A stretch of 14,506 bases of DNA, taken from the IMG/VR virus record IMGVR_UViG_2778261446_000005, positions 1-14,506 of that record. The stretch is one strand, 5' to 3'. Below are positions 2,832 to 8,288 of the stretch, one piece after another. The notes beneath the pieces were generated by a model that was not told the DNA's origin, did not search any database, and saw nothing but the letters and a program-made list of their open reading frames with translations. Made by a program: the position numbers and the translations under genes. This stretch comes from a virus. Its lineage: Duplodnaviria > Heunggongvirae > Uroviricota > Caudoviricetes. Positions within the stretch are counted from its first letter, which is position 1. The number at the start of each line of letters is the position of its first letter.

Positions 2832-3128
2832 TCAGTCATTACTGATAGCGCCATAGCGTGAGCGGTAATTACGCAGGCGCGGGTCGATATATTCAGGGAA
2901 GTGGGTATATGTGGCTTTGCGGAATGGTCGGATTGATGTCTGGTAAATTCGCTCTCGTTCTTCTTTCTCTGCAAGCCATATACAGTGGCGAAATTCCTTT
3001 TCCTCTTTCGTTTCCTGCGGTAGCGACATTATCAGGTCGTAGTTTTTTCTGAATTTATCCAGCACCTCCGATACGGAATTGCCGGAACAGCGGCGCGGGT
3101 CATCCGCACCATACAGAGGCGCTGGCAT
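2832..3128 (-). CDS. Hypothetical protein (98 aa); possibly an Abc-type anti-RecBCD protein by position and size only
   Basis: ORF from track, AAGGAT SD upstream of ATG at 3128. Sits just downstream of erf-ssb, where P22 carries abc1/abc2; I cannot confirm sequence similarity from memory. Confidence 0.45.
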
Positions 3129-3151: not shown

Positions 3152-3535
3152 CTAGAATGGAATTGAATCGTCGTATTCAGGATGATTTTGATGATTGCTA
3201 CTTTGCTGCTGTTGGCTGTTTCCTGAAGCTGCAAATCCAATCTTCGCATTCAGTAATTCAAGAGTGATTGATTGACCATTTTGCCCCTGATAAACATCAA
3301 CCCTGATGTTTTCTCCGGTAATTTCTACAATGCCACCTTCAACAAGAACACTACGGTAGTAATCCGCTTGCGCTCCCGGCTTGGCAAATACAACGGCGCT
3401 GTAGTTTGTCCATTCTTTCTTTTTTGTCTGGCGATCGTAATACTGAACGCCAGCACGGATGTTGAATCCGATATTTTCCCCGGCCTGAAACTCTCTTGCG
3501 GGTTTGTTTAGTCTTACAGTAATCGAATGTGCCAT
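3152..3535 (-). CDS. ssb: Phage single-stranded DNA-binding protein (SSB-like, 127 aa)
   Basis: Internal ATG at 3535 (M31 of track ORF 3152..3625) overlaps the erf stop as TAATG. C-terminus ends ...PEYDDSIPF, the acidic D-D-x-I-P-F tail of bacterial SSBs. Gln/Ser-rich linker before the tail. Confidence 0.6.
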   Translation of the reverse strand: MAHSITVRLNKPAREFQAGENIGFNIRAGVQYYDRQTKKKEWTNYSAVVFAKPGAQADYYRSVLVEGGIVEITGENIRVDVYQGQNGQSITLELLNAKIGFAASGNSQQQQSSNHQNHPEYDDSIPF

Positions 3536-4140
3536 TAAGCAGCCGCTCCTTCTAATTCGTCTCGTCTGATGTTGTAAACGTCCTGCGCTTTGTGCTGCTC
3601 CGGTGTGCCTTCGAGCATCTTCCACGCTTTGGCGAACGCCTGTTTAAGCTCTTCTACGGTGTTTTTCTGCAATGCTGCGTCAGTGAATGCTTTTAGAACC
3701 TGTTCAGGTGTAGGTGATGGTTTTGATTGCTTTGCTGCTGCGTTCTGCTGATGTTTATGCTCGTCGGTATCTGCATCTTTCGCATCATCAATGCCGAACA
3801 AACCATTGAGGCAATACTTGCGTGCATAAGAGCTTGTAGCTCCAGTAACTTGTGCAGAATCCATTCCTTTCTTGCTTTCTTCCTCTCGTGCAAGAGCGGT
3901 TGCCGTATGACTGTTTTCGCCATCGGTAATAGTTGCCGTGGCTTTCACGTAATACCGATCACCAATCAACACAACTTCATCGCTGATTGATAAAAACAGA
4001 CCATTCAGTAACGGCTTAACGCCTTCAAGAATGTCTTCGCAGCTTCTGTATTTATATTTACCGAATGAGTTGTACTGATTCTTTGGCGCATTCAGATTCT
4101 CCTGAATGGCTGCCAGTCTTGCGTAAAATTCTTTGCTCAT
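3535..4140 (-). CDS. erf: Erf-family single-strand annealing recombinase (P22 Erf-like, 201 aa)
   Basis: Translation from the ATG at 4140 begins MSKEFYARLAAIQENLNAPKNQYNSFGKYKYRSCEDILEGVKPLL..., matching my recollection of P22 Erf. Track ORF 3535..4170 begins at an upstream TTG. C-terminal third diverges, as expected for mosaic Erf tails. Confidence 0.8.
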   Translation of the reverse strand: MSKEFYARLAAIQENLNAPKNQYNSFGKYKYRSCEDILEGVKPLLNGLFLSISDEVVLIGDRYYVKATATITDGENSHTATALAREEESKKGMDSAQVTGATSSYARKYCLNGLFGIDDAKDADTDEHKHQQNAAAKQSKPSPTPEQVLKAFTDAALQKNTVEELKQAFAKAWKMLEGTPEQHKAQDVYNIRRDELEGAAA

Positions 4141-4150
4141 ATGTTTGTTC

Positions 4151-4321
4151 TCAGAATGGACATTCCCCAAGGAAATAACGCTGATTTAATACTTCGACTC
4201 GGGACAAATTAAGGCATACCCGCATTCCTTCGCGGTCGCCATTATGGCGATACCAGAGAGCTTTCTGCGTGTACATGCGTCTCTGTAACTTGCTCTCCTT
4301 CACTGTGGTTGCAAGTGACAT
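4151..4321 (-). CDS. Small basic protein (56 aa), arf-like by position
   Basis: Manual translation. ATG at 4321 with strong AAGGAGA SD; stop TGA at 4153..4151, 11 nt before the erf start. MSLATTVKESKLQRRMYTQKALWYRHNG... Lies where P22 has arf, but identity is not verified. Confidence 0.4.
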   Translation of the reverse strand: MSLATTVKESKLQRRMYTQKALWYRHNGDREGMRVCLNLSRVEVLNQRYFLGECPF

Positions 4322-4400
4322 GAATATCTCCTTCGTTGCCGATTAAATCTTTCATCTGACGAATGAATTCTTCGTCTGACCAGTTATCTGTGAAACTCAT
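4242..4400 (-). CDS. Small acidic ORF (52 aa), overlaps the 4151..4321 ORF in another frame
   Basis: Manual translation. ATG at 4400 overlaps the kil-like stop as ATGA, with AGGA SD. MSFTDNWSDEEFIRQMKDLIGNEGD... Overlaps the next ORF by 80 nt, so one of the two may be non-coding. Confidence 0.3.
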   Translation of the reverse strand: MSFTDNWSDEEFIRQMKDLIGNEGDIHVTCNHSEGEQVTETHVHAESSLVSP

Positions 4401-4549
4401 TTCCTGCGATACCACGGAAGGTTGATAGCTGATTTCATCGCTTTATTTGCTTCAAGCCACATTTTTGAATCACCAATAAATCGGGCTATTACTGCTTTGT
4501 TCTGTGCAGCACGAAGCATCTGGTGATTGATGGCTATTTCATTGCGCAT
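4397..4549 (-). CDS. kil: Kil-like small host-killing protein (FtsZ inhibitor family, 50 aa)
   Basis: Manual translation MRNEIAINHQMLRAAQNKAVIARFIGDSKMWLEANKAMKSAINLPWYRRK. The motif IA-FIGD-KM matches what I recall of lambda Kil. GAGG SD. Directly downstream of cIII, as in lambda and P22. Confidence 0.55.
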   Translation of the reverse strand: MRNEIAINHQMLRAAQNKAVIARFIGDSKMWLEANKAMKSAINLPWYRRK

Positions 4550-4665
4550 AATAAGACCTCAACTCTTTTCCATCCGTCACGTAATTTACGGGTGATTCGT
4601 TCAAGTAAAGATTCATTTAGTTGGAAGGCACCCATGCGAGCGCCTCCCGCGATTGCGTAAATCAT
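4534..4665 (-). CDS. cIII: CIII-like protease (FtsH) inhibitor (43 aa)
   Basis: Manual translation MIYAIAGGARMGAFQLNESLLERITRKLRDGWKRVEVLLCAMK. The ESLLERITRKLRDGWKR core matches the lambda CIII amphipathic helix. AAGGAA SD upstream of ATG at 4665. Confidence 0.85.
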   Translation of the reverse strand: MIYAIAGGARMGAFQLNESLLERITRKLRDGWKRVEVLLCAMK

Positions 4666-4689: not shown

Positions 4690-5658
4690 TTAGTAGGTTA
4701 TTTTTGTTGCGAATACTTCGCCTTTTACGATGGCTGTTATGATATTTTTAGCAACATCTTCTGATGCGCCAACCTTGATAAGGTCAGCAAGTATTTTGTT
4801 ATTTACTTCTTTCCGGTGAGCTTTATCCTTTGCTCTACGCTCTTCTTCGTCCTTGATTCTTTTTTCTTCTGCTATTCTGGCTTGCTCTTTTTCTTCAGCC
4901 TCGCGCCGGATTCGTTCTGCCTCCTCCTGTGCTTTTCGGCGTTCTGCTTCAATTGCTGCCTGCTTTTCTCTTTCAGCTCGTTCTGCTGCCTCTTTTGCTT
5001 CGCGCTGTGCTCGTCGCTCGGCTTCAATGCGTTCACGCTCTGCACGTTCCGCTGCGGCCTTAGCTTCTGCTTCTCGCCTTGCTGCTGCTTCAATTTCGGC
5101 TTTTGCCTTTGCTTCGGCTTCTGCTCTGGCTTTCTCTTCAGCTTCTTTTTTTAAGCGTTCTTCATGCTCTCGCTTTTCCTGCTCCGCTTTGAGTCTTGCC
5201 TCTTCTCTTTGGCGGTCAAATTCGCGATCCATCAAAATCGCTATTTCATGGTCAGACTCAATTTGCTTTGCGAGAGCTTCAGCTGCTGCCTTAGCTTCTT
5301 CTTCGGCTTTAATCCGTGCCTGTTCCTCCTCATAATCAGTAAGAGGCTGGCGCGCCTTGGCTTTCAGTTCATCAAGGCGATCGCGCACTGTCTTGCGGTT
5401 GGCATCAATTAGCTTTGGAATTTCCTTCAGTTCAGCAACAAGGTCTTTGCCAAGACCATCGAGATATGTTTTCGTCTGCGCAACTTTATACGCCAGAGAA
5501 GCGATCTCCTTTCTGCCCTTTGCCGTTGTGATATCAGGCACAAAGGACATAACTTCACGTTCAACCTTTTGGAGAATTTCTTCAATCTGGTCGGCAGACT
5601 GAAATACAGTCATTGCATTTGCTTTTTCAATAACAACTAAATCTGTTACTTCACTCAT
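4690..5658 (-). CDS. Unknown protein (322 aa): about 110-aa N-terminal domain, about 170-aa Glu/Ala/Lys/Arg-rich predicted single alpha-helix or coiled coil, about 40-aa C-terminal domain
   Basis: Track ORF 4690..5754; I place the start at the ATG at 5658 (MSEVTDLVVIEK...) because it is 7 nt after a GGAGG SD and directly after an intrinsic terminator. Central region is repetitive EAK/ERA-type sequence (e.g. EEKARAEAEAKAKAEIEAAARREAEAKAAAERAERERIEAERRAQREAKEAAERAEREKQAAIEAERRK). Confidence 0.7.
   Translation of the reverse strand: MSEVTDLVVIEKANAMTVFQSADQIEEILQKVEREVMSFVPDITTAKGRKEIASLAYKVAQTKTYLDGLGKDLVAELKEIPKLIDANRKTVRDRLDELKAKARQPLTDYEEEQARIKAEEEAKAAAEALAKQIESDHEIAILMDREFDRQREEARLKAEQEKREHEERLKKEAEEKARAEAEAKAKAEIEAAARREAEAKAAAERAERERIEAERRAQREAKEAAERAEREKQAAIEAERRKAQEEAERIRREAEEKEQARIAEEKRIKDEEERRAKDKAHRKEVNNKILADLIKVGASEDVAKNIITAIVKGEVFATKITY
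4850..5340 (-). repeat. Low-complexity coding repeat encoding the E/A/K/R-rich helix
   Basis: Plus strand is pyrimidine-rich with reiterated gcttc/tgctgc/ctcttc units. It generates two spurious plus-strand ORFs (4816..5154, 4853..5335) rich in Cys/Ser/Phe/Leu. Confidence 0.6.
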
Positions 5659-5670
5659 ATATCCTCCATC

Positions 5671-5700
5671 AAAAAAAATTGCCCTCACACGGGAGGGCAA
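5671..5700 (-). terminator. Intrinsic terminator (minus strand) immediately upstream of the ER/K-rich gene
   Basis: Minus strand reads TTGCCCTC-CCGTGT-GAGGGCAA followed by TTTTTTTT (plus 5671..5678 is the A-run). Not followed by a T-run on the plus strand, so it is strand-specific. Confidence 0.7.
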
Positions 5701-5791
5701 AGAAGATTTCCAATAATCAGAACAAGTCGGCTCCTGTTTAGTTACGAGCGACATTGCTCACATAGCAGACTCGTAAATCTGCTATAGGCGC

Positions 5792-6676: not shown

Positions 6677-7015
6677 CTATGACCATTTTTTATTTGGATT
6701 TCGTTGGTGAGCGTGATTAACAACTCTGTGCATTACATCCTCATATTTTTCATCTTCAATTTTTTCGACATCGCGAGGAAATGGTGTTGCTAATGCTTTG
6801 TCAACTTTGTCCATTGGGTCTTCATTAATCTTATATTCAGGACCGTCATCTATAGCATTAAATCCAGGTGTTACACCGTTTTTTAATGCATATGCTATCC
6901 TCTTTTCCCATCTCGCTATTCTCCTCCTGTCTCGAGATGTAAGACCTCTATCAGATACTTTTCTGTTTTGTCCGCGGTCAGGATTAACATAAATAGTCTT
7001 TTTCACCATAAGCAT
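6677..7015 (-). CDS. Hypothetical basic/acidic protein, first gene downstream of N (about 110 aa)
   Basis: Track ORF 6677..7021 begins at a TTG; ATGs at 7015 and 7009 are the likely starts (MLMVKKTIYVNPDRGQNRKVSDRG...). No SD, 2 nt after the N stop, suggesting translational coupling. Occupies the slot lambda uses for ral. Confidence 0.5.
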   Translation of the reverse strand: MLMVKKTIYVNPDRGQNRKVSDRGLTSRDRRRIARWEKRIAYALKNGVTPGFNAIDDGPEYKINEDPMDKVDKALATPFPRDVEKIEDEKYEDVMHRVVNHAHQRNPNKKWS

Positions 7016-7017
7016 AC

Positions 7018-7323
7018 TCAATAAGCACCGTACGGTAGTTTACTGTACAATTTTATTTTTTGGACTGCATGTATTTTGTTTCCTAACGGGTTTGAATCTT
7101 TGTAATAAATACTTCTATTTTTTCGAACGACTTCTTCTTTCTTCTTGCAGCAAAGGCTTCCTAGTGATGCTGCTTTGTCTGCTCTGACGCAACCAGAGAG
7201 CTTTAGCGCAATTTTTCGCGCCAGTGCTTCATTACTGCGTCGCTCGGCAATAAGTTCTGCTCTGCGAGCTTTGTAGCGGCTTTTTGCCGTACCTTTGGAT
7301 TCTTTCCAGACAATGGTTACCAT
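7018..7323 (-). CDS. N: Antitermination protein N, phage phi21 type (101 aa)
   Basis: Translation from the ATG at 7323 begins MVTIVWKESKGTAKSRYKARRAELIAERR, the arginine-rich motif I recall for the phi21 N boxB-binding peptide. AAGGAGA SD 6 nt upstream. The in-frame ATG at 7353 has no SD. Located just downstream of pL and nutL. Confidence 0.85.
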   Translation of the reverse strand: MVTIVWKESKGTAKSRYKARRAELIAERRSNEALARKIALKLSGCVRADKAASLGSLCCKKKEEVVRKNRSIYYKDSNPLGNKIHAVQKIKLYSKLPYGAY

Positions 7324-7433
7324 GATGGTCTCCTTTAAGTGGCTTTGGCGCATGACGCGTCGAGGTGCTTATCTTCTCGATCGCTGTCTTGCAGCTGCAA
7401 TTCGCGCCATCCCCAAAACCACTCAAGTTCTGG

Positions 7434-7637: not shown

Positions 7638-8288
7638 TTAAGGAAGGTTTGCTAGCTTGGCATCAACGACAACGCCAATGATTTTACAGTTCCCATTGAT
7701 TTCAATCATTGGGTATTGTGGATTGAGTGGTTTCAGGAATTTTCTACCGGCATCAATAACTAACTTTTTGAATGTCGCCTCGTTTTCTCCTTCAAGTTTG
7801 GCGACTACCAGCTTTCCATTACGTGGTTCGACTTCTGGGTCGACGAGAATAATCATCCCCTCAGGAATACTCAGTCCTGCCGGGGCAGTCATTGAATCGC
7901 CTTTAACGTCGAGCCAAAAAGAGTCTTCAGAACAATCTACCGTTGTGTCGTACCAGTTATCTATTGCACGCCTATGATATGGCTCTACAGCTTCCATCCA
8001 ACATCCTGCGCTTACCCAACTAATTAGAGGATACGAACCTCTTGGATCATGCCTGCTGTGATAGGCAATGTTTGAAAGACTATCCTCTCCTTTCAACAGG
8101 TAATCAGGGGAGCACTGCAAAGCCTTGGCTAAGGCCAATAGGTTTTCGCCATTGGGCTCAGTTTCAGATCGCTCCCATTGGGAAATAGCAACATTAGACA
8201 CGCCAACCATCTTGCCAAGGGCAGCCTGCCTAATCTTGAGTTCTTTTCTGCGAGCGCGAATACGCTCACCCATCAGTTGTGTATTCAT
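7638..8288 (-). CDS. c2: Prophage repressor, P22 c2 type (CI-like, HTH plus LexA-like S24 autocleavage domain, 216 aa)
   Basis: Translation MNTQLMGERIRARRKELKIRQAALGKMVGVSNVAISQWERSETEPNGENLLALAKALQCSPDYLL... matches my recollection of P22 C2 almost throughout. C-terminal domain has the G-D-S-M and K-L motifs of RecA-cleavable repressors. Divergently oriented to cro. Confidence 0.9.
   Translation of the reverse strand: MNTQLMGERIRARRKELKIRQAALGKMVGVSNVAISQWERSETEPNGENLLALAKALQCSPDYLLKGEDSLSNIAYHSRHDPRGSYPLISWVSAGCWMEAVEPYHRRAIDNWYDTTVDCSEDSFWLDVKGDSMTAPAGLSIPEGMIILVDPEVEPRNGKLVVAKLEGENEATFKKLVIDAGRKFLKPLNPQYPMIEINGNCKIIGVVVDAKLANLP

Follow-up and report, generated by a model that had tools for sequence, protein, structure and literature searches.

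Given that phage annealing-protein systems (Red, RecET, Erf and Sak4) underlie recombineering and drive the mosaicism of phage genomes, and that the accessory factors of these systems are poorly known, a gene for a 322-aa protein in a lambdoid prophage, with N/Nun on one side and cIII-kil-erf-ssb-abc2 on the other, raises the question of what such a protein does there. The window, that is, the whole stretch of DNA that was analyzed, comprises 14,506 nt, and the coordinates of its relevant features are collected in table 1. The reading frame, the protein, its family and its genomic surroundings in distant phages were investigated.

The Gene and Its Family

All homologues begin with MSEVTDLVV..., and therefore the true start is the ATG at 5658; the alternative reading, 354 aa from an ATG at 5754, would cross the upstream terminator. 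This terminator (8 pairs, 5 of them GC, plus a T8 tract in the terminator scan) folds into a hairpin of -18.1 kcal/mol (z -2.4), and in the minimum-energy fold the Shine-Dalgarno sequence GGAGGA is paired with the AUCUUCU that immediately precedes this stem on its 5' side. The same 322-aa protein is present with 100% identity in phages mEp234, mEp043, IME10 and HF4s. A family of 3439 cluster representatives (E<=1e-10) shows that the reading frame is no chance ORF; it is a genuine early phage gene, and its expression probably depends on N antitermination. The original prediction had placed the gene in a slot of the N-dependent early-left operon, behind a terminator and flanked by cIII and an N-like gene, and this placement was supported: the terminator precedes GGAGGA, and cIII, kil and the N-like gene were all found. 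The window erf product is 75% identical to P22 Erf and likely starts at the ATG at 4140.

The prediction had also called the family unknown, which our searches upheld. The sole family match was PHROG 1376 (E 5.7e-109, residues 1-322 against profile positions 1-362), annotated "unknown function," and no family of Pfam, NCBIfam, PADLOC or PDB was matched. The window protein is a full-length member of phrog_1376, whereas phrog_17211 and phrog_21365 are fragment families; the phrog_1376 entry describes no function, architecture or synteny. No domain was found by a Pfam scan of 115 family members, a BFVD fold search returned family members only, the best E value of Foldseek against PDB was 5, and when family profiles were run against PDB sequences, the matches were confined to low-complexity helices and designed repeat proteins; homology of the family to any characterized protein was not detected in these searches. 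Literature searches combining TolA/Erf/prophage, TolA/Erf/exonuclease or Sak4/Erf/coiled-coil found nothing relevant to the family.

A first scan of viral contigs returned near-identical Escherichia coli prophages only and was uninformative on diversity. The N-terminal domain matched 4957 clusters at 50% identity. Of 5426 complete E. coli genomes, 530 (about a tenth) carry a family member, and phages of Pseudomonas, Vibrio, Aeromonas, Acinetobacter and other bacteria do so too. Only 26 of 72,556 plasmid records contained one; these were mostly 40-60 kb and non-mobilizable, and we read them as circularized phage genomes. The family is thus very large, uncharacterized and phage-restricted.

Table 1. 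Features of the window around the gene for the 322-aa protein
Feature	Position	Strand	Basis
CDS of the 322-aa protein	4690..5658	-	ORF list; stop codon 4690-4692; PHROG 1376 member
N-like gene, flank of the 322-aa gene	7018..7353		
Intrinsic terminator upstream of the gene	5671..5700	-	Stem-loop 5679-5700, T8 tract 5671-5678; sequence, terminator scan, RNA fold
Shine-Dalgarno GGAGGA	5662..5667	-	3 nt before ATG; read from sequence
N-terminal domain, aa 1-118	5305..5658	-	115-member alignment; AlphaFold2 model pLDDT 92.6
Neck, aa 119-147, helical, Ala/Glu-rich	5218..5304	-	Sequence comparison
Predicted ER/K-type single alpha-helix spacer, aa 148-280	4819..5217	-	Composition, i/i+4 charge pairs, predicted helix
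C-terminal domain, aa 281-322	4693..4818	-	C-terminal sequences of ~110 members; alignments
27-nt direct repeat, copy 1	5047..5073	.	89% identity between copies
27-nt direct repeat, copy 2	5278..5304	.	89% identity between copies
cIII, immediately downstream	4534..4665	-	Pfam Lambda_CIII E 4e-15
kil	4397..4549	-	Pfam Lambda_Kil E 1.7e-20
erf, single-strand annealing protein, core of the linked recombination module	3535..4170	-	Pfam ERF E 2.4e-44
Phage SSB, 127 aa from ATG at 3535, C-terminal tail DDSIPF	3152..3535	-	PHROG 44 E 1.7e-29; ORF translation
abc2, anti-RecBCD gene	2832..3128	-	94% identical to P22 Abc2 (tblastn); P22 annotation

Architecture of the Protein

The protein consists of an N-terminal helical part of ~118 aa, a charged helix of ~130-170 aa and a C-terminal part of ~42 aa. 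In the AlphaFold2 model of the N-terminal domain, the short helices 12-20 and 22-38 are packed on the start of a long helix. Residues R49, K63, G70, K78, D85, R88 and E110 were invariant among the 115 aligned members, a hydrophobic heptad seam runs through the domain (hydrophobic a/d fraction 0.5-0.75), and the N-terminus (MSEVTDLVVIEKANAM...) has no hydrophobic span. The neck that follows contains a hydrophobic patch, DHEIAILMDREF, which is kept in enterobacterial relatives.

The composition of residues 151-280 is dominated by E (30%), A (26%), R (18%) and K (12%), with ~90% E/A/R/K/Q and large hydrophobic residues making up only 4-7% of each 28-residue segment. Opposite-charge pairs in the spacer numbered 60 at i/i+4 versus 24-32 at other spacings, and the hydrophobic a/d fraction was <=0.25, without a hydrophobic seam. 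Such an excess of i/i+4 charge pairs without a seam is the signature of a single alpha-helix. AlphaFold2 placed helices at 46-157 and 165-295; the pLDDT was 50-80 over residues 150-200 and 87-96 between residues ~200 and 295. A PDB profile search gave weak matches (E 0.01-0.02) to the charged helices of myosin VI (E 0.017) and zuotin. The central region is, on these predictions, an ER/K single alpha-helix that would be stable as a monomer in solution, and at 1.5 A per residue the spacer would span ~20 nm.

The C-terminal domain carries the motif HRK.(I/V)N...L...G(L)s.e.AK..v.AI.kG.I..v.I.Y, with a conserved aromatic residue at the end. A hint of RuvA domain III/UBA-like similarity recurred for this domain below significance: PDB hmmsearch gave non-significant E values of 0.3-0.85, 3 of the 55 members scanned matched Pfam RuvA_C weakly, the best of them at E 0.01, and the Foldseek E value was 9.

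Family proteins are ~260-460 aa long; the three parts are retained throughout the family, but the linker varies in length. A 245-aa allele arises from a 231-nt deletion that removes exactly 77 aa, including the neck segment. The two 27-nt direct repeats of the window lie 231 nt apart, the span of this 77-codon deletion, which is tolerated in many genomes. Conservation of the three parts, drift of the linker length and tolerance of the deletion fit a spacer. What had been predicted for the protein was partly supported: the three-part architecture agrees with the domain alignments and the AlphaFold2 helices, and the repeat region is indeed variable in length. Of the two options offered for the charged region, single alpha-helix or coiled coil, the i/i+4 pairs favor the former, and the latter was rejected because the linker lacks a hydrophobic seam.

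Synteny with Recombination Modules

The surroundings of the gene were compared in 56 loci, each from a different species, with genes called by homology-weighted calling. Annealing proteins, recombination exonucleases and SSBs were counted as recombination-module genes, and the same strand was required. We found such a gene within 1.5 kb in 52 of the 56 loci; the distance was no more than 600 nt in 47 of them and no more than 50 nt in 23, and where the two genes abut the gap is typically 7-10 nt. The nearest partner was Erf in 26 loci, a RecT-like protein in 13 and Sak4 in 5, the remainder being YqaJ, DUF3799, SSB or the unknown families phrog_10048 and phrog_3657. The linkage was thus seen with three unrelated annealing-protein families and on either side of them. 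Enterobacterial phages have cIII, kil and small ORFs between the gene and the annealing-protein gene, a separation of 300-930 nt. Phages from outside Enterobacterales lack cIII and kil, and there the gene still abuts the annealing-protein gene at 7-10 nt. The order is target-Erf-exonuclease in phage JBD44, RecE-Bet-target-RdgC in phage PhiPLPE and Sak4-like-SSB-target in Vibrio phage Seahorse, and in phage Ab31 the family member ORF39 precedes the BAS recombineering operon by 7 nt; similar arrangements occur in Serratia phage Eta, Acinetobacter phage TCUAN1 and a Yersinia phage. Exceptions were few: three loci (L115, L136 and L137) had no recognizable Rec genes nearby, the nearest one in L129 was 4.1 kb off, and on one metagenomic contig the family member stood beside tail genes.

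Contiguity with a phage Rec module, defined as in PMC12315714 by an annealing protein, an exonuclease, an SSB and an anti-RecBCD protein, is therefore present on the same strand in diverse phages, and the synteny of the family with Rec modules is a new finding. The family is absent from the module genes listed in that 2025 survey of lambdoid Rec modules (PMC12315714). In Firmicutes phages, a comparable slot beside the annealing-protein gene is taken by Mu Gam-like, Sipho_Gp157, DUF1351 or DUF2483 proteins, for which analogous functions were proposed (PMC8093625); examples are DUF1351-Sak4-SSB in Oenococcus phage phi9805 and gp157-Sak4 in Sfi21. Recombineering with the BAS operon of Ab31 works without ORF39, which the BAS paper does not mention (PMC6438905), so the protein is dispensable for annealing-based recombination, given over-expression of the other genes. 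ORF39 is likewise unmentioned in the Ab31 genome paper.

The N-terminal domain was also more conserved than the neighboring proteins. Its median pairwise identity was 55% versus 32% for Erf, 70% versus 35% for YqaJ and 55% versus 47% for SSB, and between Enterobacterales and Pseudomonas it still reached ~55%. This conservation fits a target that is invariant between phages.

Proposed Role and Comparison with Known Systems

The analysis shows the gene, its architecture, the size of its family and its synteny with Rec modules. Of the roles considered, the most likely, at about even odds, is that of an accessory to the Rec modules with which phages carry out single-strand annealing, in which the protein would serve as an elongated adaptor or tether. 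The recombination role, the two binding partners, the oligomeric state and the mechanism of tethering are what we infer, as follows. The N-terminal helical head would bind something constant between phages, either a DNA intermediate or a conserved host replication/recombination machine, and would self-associate, probably via its hydrophobic seam. The ER/K helix would act as a semi-rigid spacer of ~20 nm whose exact length would be unimportant, and the small C-terminal module would bind a second partner. A broader version, about which we are more doubtful, is that the family could be a generic, unrecognized component, an ER/K tether coupling whichever annealing protein, exonuclease and SSB the phage has to an invariant host structure (e.g., the replisome, host SSB or RuvAB), with which recombineering might be improved or extended to more hosts. 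Should the protein prove a functional partner, it would be a new component of a textbook system that could be tried at once in recombineering constructs (e.g., BAS plus Ab31 ORF39), and it would show a bacterial virus employing an ER/K helix as a molecular spacer; otherwise, the name "TolA," widespread in databases, would still have to be corrected. Two recent studies of exactly such operons make no mention of the family.

From the slot only, the original prediction had suggested host takeover or anti-defense. Such a protein might inhibit a host nuclease (e.g., RecBCD) or a defense that senses recombination intermediates, and would lie near the Rec module as a co-worker, like lambda Gam and P22 Abc2. 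We now consider this unlikely. The gene does lie in the accessory part of the pL operon, the analogous Firmicutes slot includes Mu Gam-like end-protection proteins, the Ab31 BAS operon and the Pseudomonas modules examined contain no recognizable RecBCD inhibitor, and addition of Red-gamma improves BAS recombineering (PMC6438905). A substitute for the known anti-RecBCD proteins, however, would be expected to show a distribution complementary to gam and abc2, and the gene was rejected as a simple substitute of this kind: abc2 accompanies it in 73 of 80 close loci as well as in the window, and a lambda-type gam does so in two loci (L043 and L108), so the gene is no replacement for either. Typical anti-defense genes are small, patchy and fast-evolving, whereas this family is widespread and uniform in architecture, with an N-terminal domain that keeps ~55% identity between Enterobacterales and Pseudomonas and surpasses the neighboring Erf, YqaJ and SSB in conservation. 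No PADLOC match and no hhalign similarity to Gam, Abc1, Abc2, Arf, Mu Gam, gp157 or DUF1351 was found, and the linkage to Rec modules in distant phages also speaks against anti-defense.

It is improbable, too, that the synteny is incidental and that the gene serves another early function, such as control of replication or cell division, a part in the lysis-lysogeny decision alongside cIII and kil, or the organization of nucleoid or membrane, from a fixed place in the module order. Synteny by itself could indeed come from conserved module order in temperate phages. cIII follows the gene in all 80 closely related E. coli prophage loci (tblastn) and in a Yersinia phage, a primase is the neighbor in Serratia phage Eta, and tail genes lie downstream on the one metagenomic contig. 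The neighbors in L129 are a helicase and an endonuclease that we read from its sequence as of the VRR-NUC type and that has PHROG endonuclease/Holliday-junction-resolvase matches. Fixed order with cIII and kil, however, does not explain the 7-10 nt spacing from the annealing-protein gene in phages that have neither, nor a linkage that extends over three unrelated annealing-protein families on either side.

Scarcely credible is a TolA-like cell-envelope protein, the name in most database records ('cell envelope biogenesis protein TolA', 'TolA', 'colicin import membrane protein'), because the likeness to TolA (TIGR02794/PRK09510) consists of the long Ala/Glu/Lys-rich helical segment, and the one relative with a weak NCBIfam TolA match, confined to its low-complexity charged linker, scored far below the cut-offs (25.6 bits vs. 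213 and 22.6 vs. 59.45), whereas the window protein has no TolA match, lacks the N-terminal membrane anchor and domain III (the Pfam TolA C-terminal domain was found neither in it nor in 115 relatives), and is of cytoplasmic type and phage-restricted. As judged from the sequences, the name is an annotation artifact that reflects composition only, and it is refuted as a family membership.

The proposed tether may instead be compared with the proteins that occupy similar positions. DUF1351 (PF07083), represented by gp48 of Oenococcus phage phi9805, is similar in size (308 aa) and lies directly upstream of Sak4-SSB; DUF1351 genes are reported beside Erf, RecT and Sak4 genes (PMC8093625), and their function is likewise uncharacterized. 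Unlike the target, the DUF1351 sequences examined have no long E/K/R-rich linker. None of the 115 family members matched PF07083 at E<=1, and hhalign against phi9805 and five relatives gave probabilities of 0.1-0.6% with a profile that was shallow (6 sequences) because the homologue search gave only 15 proteins. Sipho_Gp157, Mu Gam-like, lambda Gam and P22 Abc1, Abc2 and Arf share the position beside annealing-protein genes in early operons, but differ from the target in size and architecture; hhalign probabilities against them were <=1.7%, without Pfam matches. Remote homology to DUF1351, within the reach of this shallow profile, or to Sipho_Gp157 was rejected on the negative Pfam scans of the 115 members and hhalign.

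ER/K single alpha-helices serve as spacers in myosin VI, myosin X and caldesmon. In these proteins the helix is a structural motif and defines no family, and their flanking domains are unrelated to those of the target; our literature search found no paper on an ER/K spacer in a phage recombination context. In composition, in i/i+4 charges, in the absence of a seam and in the uninterrupted predicted helix, the spacers of myosin VI/X and caldesmon are like that of the 322-aa protein.

Linkage of the family to phage recombination modules

The genomic contexts of the 322-residue protein and its relatives were surveyed with one genome per GTDB species, giving 57 loci, of which 56 had an identifiable copy. 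Neighbouring genes were called with homology support, and their clusters were annotated by Pfam and PHROGs. In 52 of the 56 loci, a recombination-module gene lay on the same strand no more than 1.5 kb from the copy; the distance was at most 600 nt in 47 loci and at most 50 nt in 23. The nearest partner was Erf in 26 loci, a RecT-like protein in 13 and Sak4 (RecA-like) in 5; in the remaining loci it was a YqaJ or DUF3799 exonuclease, SSB, or a member of phrog_10048 or phrog_3657. In Pseudomonas and its relatives, the family member is typically followed by Erf-YqaJ-SSB, RecT-YqaJ-SSB or Sak4-SSB, with 7-10 nt from its stop codon to the next start. The typical order in Aeromonas is DUF3799-RecT-family member, and that in Enterobacterales is family member-cIII-(kil)-small ORFs-Erf, RecT or Sak4. 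Isolated phages with the same pattern are JBD44, PhiPLPE, Seahorse, Ab31, Eta, TCUAN1 and a Yersinia phage. The N-terminal domain was also more conserved than its recombination partners in the same loci (median identity 55% vs. 32% for Erf, 70% vs. 35% for YqaJ and 55% vs. 47% for SSB).

Among the exceptions, one copy is truncated (L136), and two lie among neighbours of unknown function (L115, L137). Another (L129) adjoins a helicase and an endonuclease (PHROG endonuclease/Holliday-junction-resolvase matches), with the nearest recombination gene 4.1 kb away. On a 7.7-kb metagenomic contig, the family member (L005:1941-2909) is immediately followed by head-tail and tail genes (DUF7370, a tail terminator and a probable tape-measure protein), with a divergent pRha/ANT anti-repressor and no recombination genes in view.

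Genes of phrog_10048 (L130:9109-10029, L141:9106-9939, L112:6806-7582) and phrog_3657 (L090:10318-11148, L119:6597-7928), whose functions are unknown, occupy the position of the annealing protein and adjoin YqaJ or DUF3799 exonucleases and SSB; both are candidate unrecognised single-strand annealing proteins. In re-sequenced mEp234 (L004:8298-9418), the place taken by ssb and abc2 in the window is occupied by transposase genes, which lie ~170 nt downstream of erf after one small ORF; one of them is noted as encoding an IS407-type insertion-element transposase. They may explain the classing of this phage as lacking an anti-RecBCD gene.

Gene order and expression signals in the window

The window comes from a mosaic lambdoid prophage of the P22/HK type and covers its immunity and early region. 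Its pL operon, on the minus strand, runs from the N-like and Nun-like genes through three small ORFs and a terminator to the gene studied here, cIII, kil, one or two small ORFs, erf, ssb and abc2. Because the N-like and Nun-like genes are adjacent, one pL operon appears to encode both.

Features of the window
Feature	Position	Strand	Remarks
cI-like repressor	7638-8288	+	
Cro, cII, O, DnaB-like helicase, Nin genes		+	
N-like antiterminator	7018-7353	-	phrog_271, E 1e-31
Nun-like transcription-termination factor	6677-7021	-	phrog_5632, E 4.8e-71; directly after N-like gene
GC-rich hairpin with T8 tract	5679-5700	-	22-nt hairpin; T8 tract at 5671-5678; upstream of GGAGGA
GGAGGA		-	3 nt upstream of the ATG of the 322-residue protein
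322-residue protein	4690-5658	-	ATG at 5658
27-nt direct repeats	5047-5073, 5278-5304		89% identical; spacing 231 nt; match EAKAAAE peptide repeats
cIII	4534-4665	-	
kil	4397-4549	-	
Small ORF	4242-4415	-	between kil and erf
erf	3535-4170	-	
ssb	3152-3535	-	
abc2	2832-3128	-	94% identity to P22 Abc2 (anti-RecBCD)

The coordinates and reading frame assigned in the original prediction are correct, since an alternative start at 5754 would put the terminator within the ORF and the homologues all begin with MSEVTDLVV. Judging from the layout of the terminator, expression may reasonably be taken to depend on N antitermination. Just 5' of the terminator stem, AUCUUCU pairs with the Shine-Dalgarno sequence GGAGGAU (5655-5720, minus strand; minimum-energy RNA fold, z -2.4), so the ribosome-binding site may be partly occluded in read-through transcripts. 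The small ORF lying between kil and erf shares the motif SDEEFI with the beginning of P22 Arf; Arf is the cofactor of Erf and is encoded at the same position. No significant similarity was obtained by tblastn.

Three-part architecture and distribution of the family

The charged-helix protein noticed originally stands, and its anatomy can now be drawn more sharply. A helical domain spans residues 1-118 (AlphaFold2, 114 homologues, pLDDT 92.6). It is modelled with helices 12-20 and 22-38 packed on the first part of a very long helix, and it bears a regular hydrophobic a/d seam. Charged residues predominate among its invariant positions (R49, K63, G70, K78, D85, R88, E110), and K71, K82, R92, R103, P81 and P105 are nearly so. 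Residues 148-280 (E 30%, A 26%, R 18%, K 12%) hold just 4-7% large hydrophobics per 28-residue window, and opposite-charge pairs number 60 at i/i+4 vs. 24-32 at every other spacing (about twofold). Such a pattern is typical of an ER/K single alpha-helix and not of a coiled coil, the other type first offered. AlphaFold2 modelled the linker as one uninterrupted helix, and the family profile found only weak matches among PDB sequences (E 0.01-0.8), on charged helices (e.g. of myosin VI and zuotin). Residues 281-322 are a small conserved module with the motif HRK.(I/V)N..., a G-L-s-e-e-A-K helix, AI.kG.I..v.I.Y and a conserved terminal aromatic. Its sole outside likeness, to RuvA domain III/UBA-like helical modules, was recurrent, weak and not significant.

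One common allele, of 245 aa, is shorter by exactly 77 residues, and its deletion junction lies inside the repeated peptide EAKAAAE. The loss fits the 231-nt spacing of the direct repeats, so the length change by way of repeats that was originally predicted is borne out. Linkers across the family range from ~100 to 300 residues, suggesting that exact length is not critical.

The protein belongs to PHROG 1376 ("unknown function"), and neither it nor 115 diverse relatives matched Pfam, NCBIfam or PADLOC. It is a member of a known but uncharacterised cluster, hence its existence is not new. In a full HMMER scan, the N-domain matched 4957 cluster representatives with E<=1e-3, of which 3439 reached E<=1e-10. 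In every match listed, the domain starts within the first ~35 residues. Lengths are typically about 260-430 aa, and the three-part architecture is kept in nearly all full-length members inspected. The identical gene occurs in mEp234, mEp043, IME10 and HF4s, and genes 98-99.5% identical in HK544, mEp213, N7, Louie and some Stx1a phages. Among complete E. coli genomes, 530 of 5426 have the gene. Phages of Pseudomonas, Vibrio, Klebsiella, Erwinia, Shewanella, Acinetobacter, Serratia, Iodobacter and Cobetia also encode the N-domain. Plasmids nearly lack the family (26 of 72,556 records, mostly 40-60 kb and non-mobilisable), and we read these records as circularised phage genomes. Two loci from metagenome bins labelled Actinomycetes and Coriobacteriia (L089, L123) are of proteobacterial type, one having a gene 99% identical to that of E. 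coli and the other a Pseudomonas-like Erf-YqaJ-SSB module; the assignments probably reflect bin contamination.

The database names of the family ("TolA", "cell envelope biogenesis protein", "fibrinogen binding protein", "tail-fiber protein", "antitoxin") all derive from the low-complexity helix. Membership of the TolA family is refuted: the models scored far below cut-offs, and the membrane anchor and TolA C-terminal domain are absent. In three relatives (P0070, P0114, P0075), the N-domain is joined in frame to unrelated sequence. The partner in P0070 is the C-terminal part of Abc2, implying deletion of cIII, kil, erf and ssb; all three appear to be deletion products of decaying prophages rather than new architectures. 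P0070 carries the precomputed Pfam label PF11043 (DUF2856) and its C-terminal part comes from the abc2 ORF, so Pfam-based annotation may miss the RecBCD modulator of the module.

Proposed role and comparison with known systems

Considering that the gene stays next to at least three unrelated annealing-protein and two exonuclease families, with conservation above all of them, the simplest interpretation is that its product works with the recombination module; our confidence in this link is moderate. The tight linkage, whatever the partner genes, is the main novelty, and no description of it, or of the three-part architecture, ER/K spacer and repeat-mediated alleles, was found in the literature searched. 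The protein would act through a feature common to all these systems, for example a conserved host machine or an intermediate of DNA, and not by specific contact with one recombinase. Its two small binding modules would be kept apart by a semi-rigid charged helix of ~20 nm. Two modules and a long charged helix suggest an adaptor or tether, and the hydrophobic seam of the N-terminal head suggests self-association; we hold this specific mechanism with low confidence.

Synteny with the module without any functional tie is a real possibility. The same holds for a role connected with cIII and kil in enterobacterial phages, in which all 80 close loci have cIII after the gene. The host-takeover or anti-defence function first guessed is only partly supported. 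Strong conservation and uniform architecture are unlike what is seen in typical anti-defence genes. The guess loses its most concrete form, a stand-in for anti-RecBCD function, because the gene coexists with abc2 in the window and in 73 of the 80 close loci, and lambda-type gam adjoins it in 2 loci.

We rate the gene as a candidate accessory gene of phage recombination modules. In the text searched, a 2025 survey of lambdoid recombination modules does not discuss it (PMC12315714). The Pseudomonas recombineering operon BAS comprises Ab31 ORF38-36 (PMC6438905). We found that ORF39 (L151:4001-5065), mentioned in neither the BAS paper nor the Ab31 genome paper, is a family member ending 7 nt before ORF38, the first BAS gene. 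BAS is functional without ORF39 (PMC6438905), thus the family protein can be no more than an accessory factor. For Firmicutes, a survey of annealing proteins described a slot beside erf, recT and sak4 occupied by Mu Gam-like, Sipho_Gp157, DUF1351 or DUF2483 proteins, for which functional analogy was proposed (PMC8093625). No homology was found between our family and gp157 or DUF1351; the family is the proteobacterial occupant of a slot comparable to that of Firmicutes.
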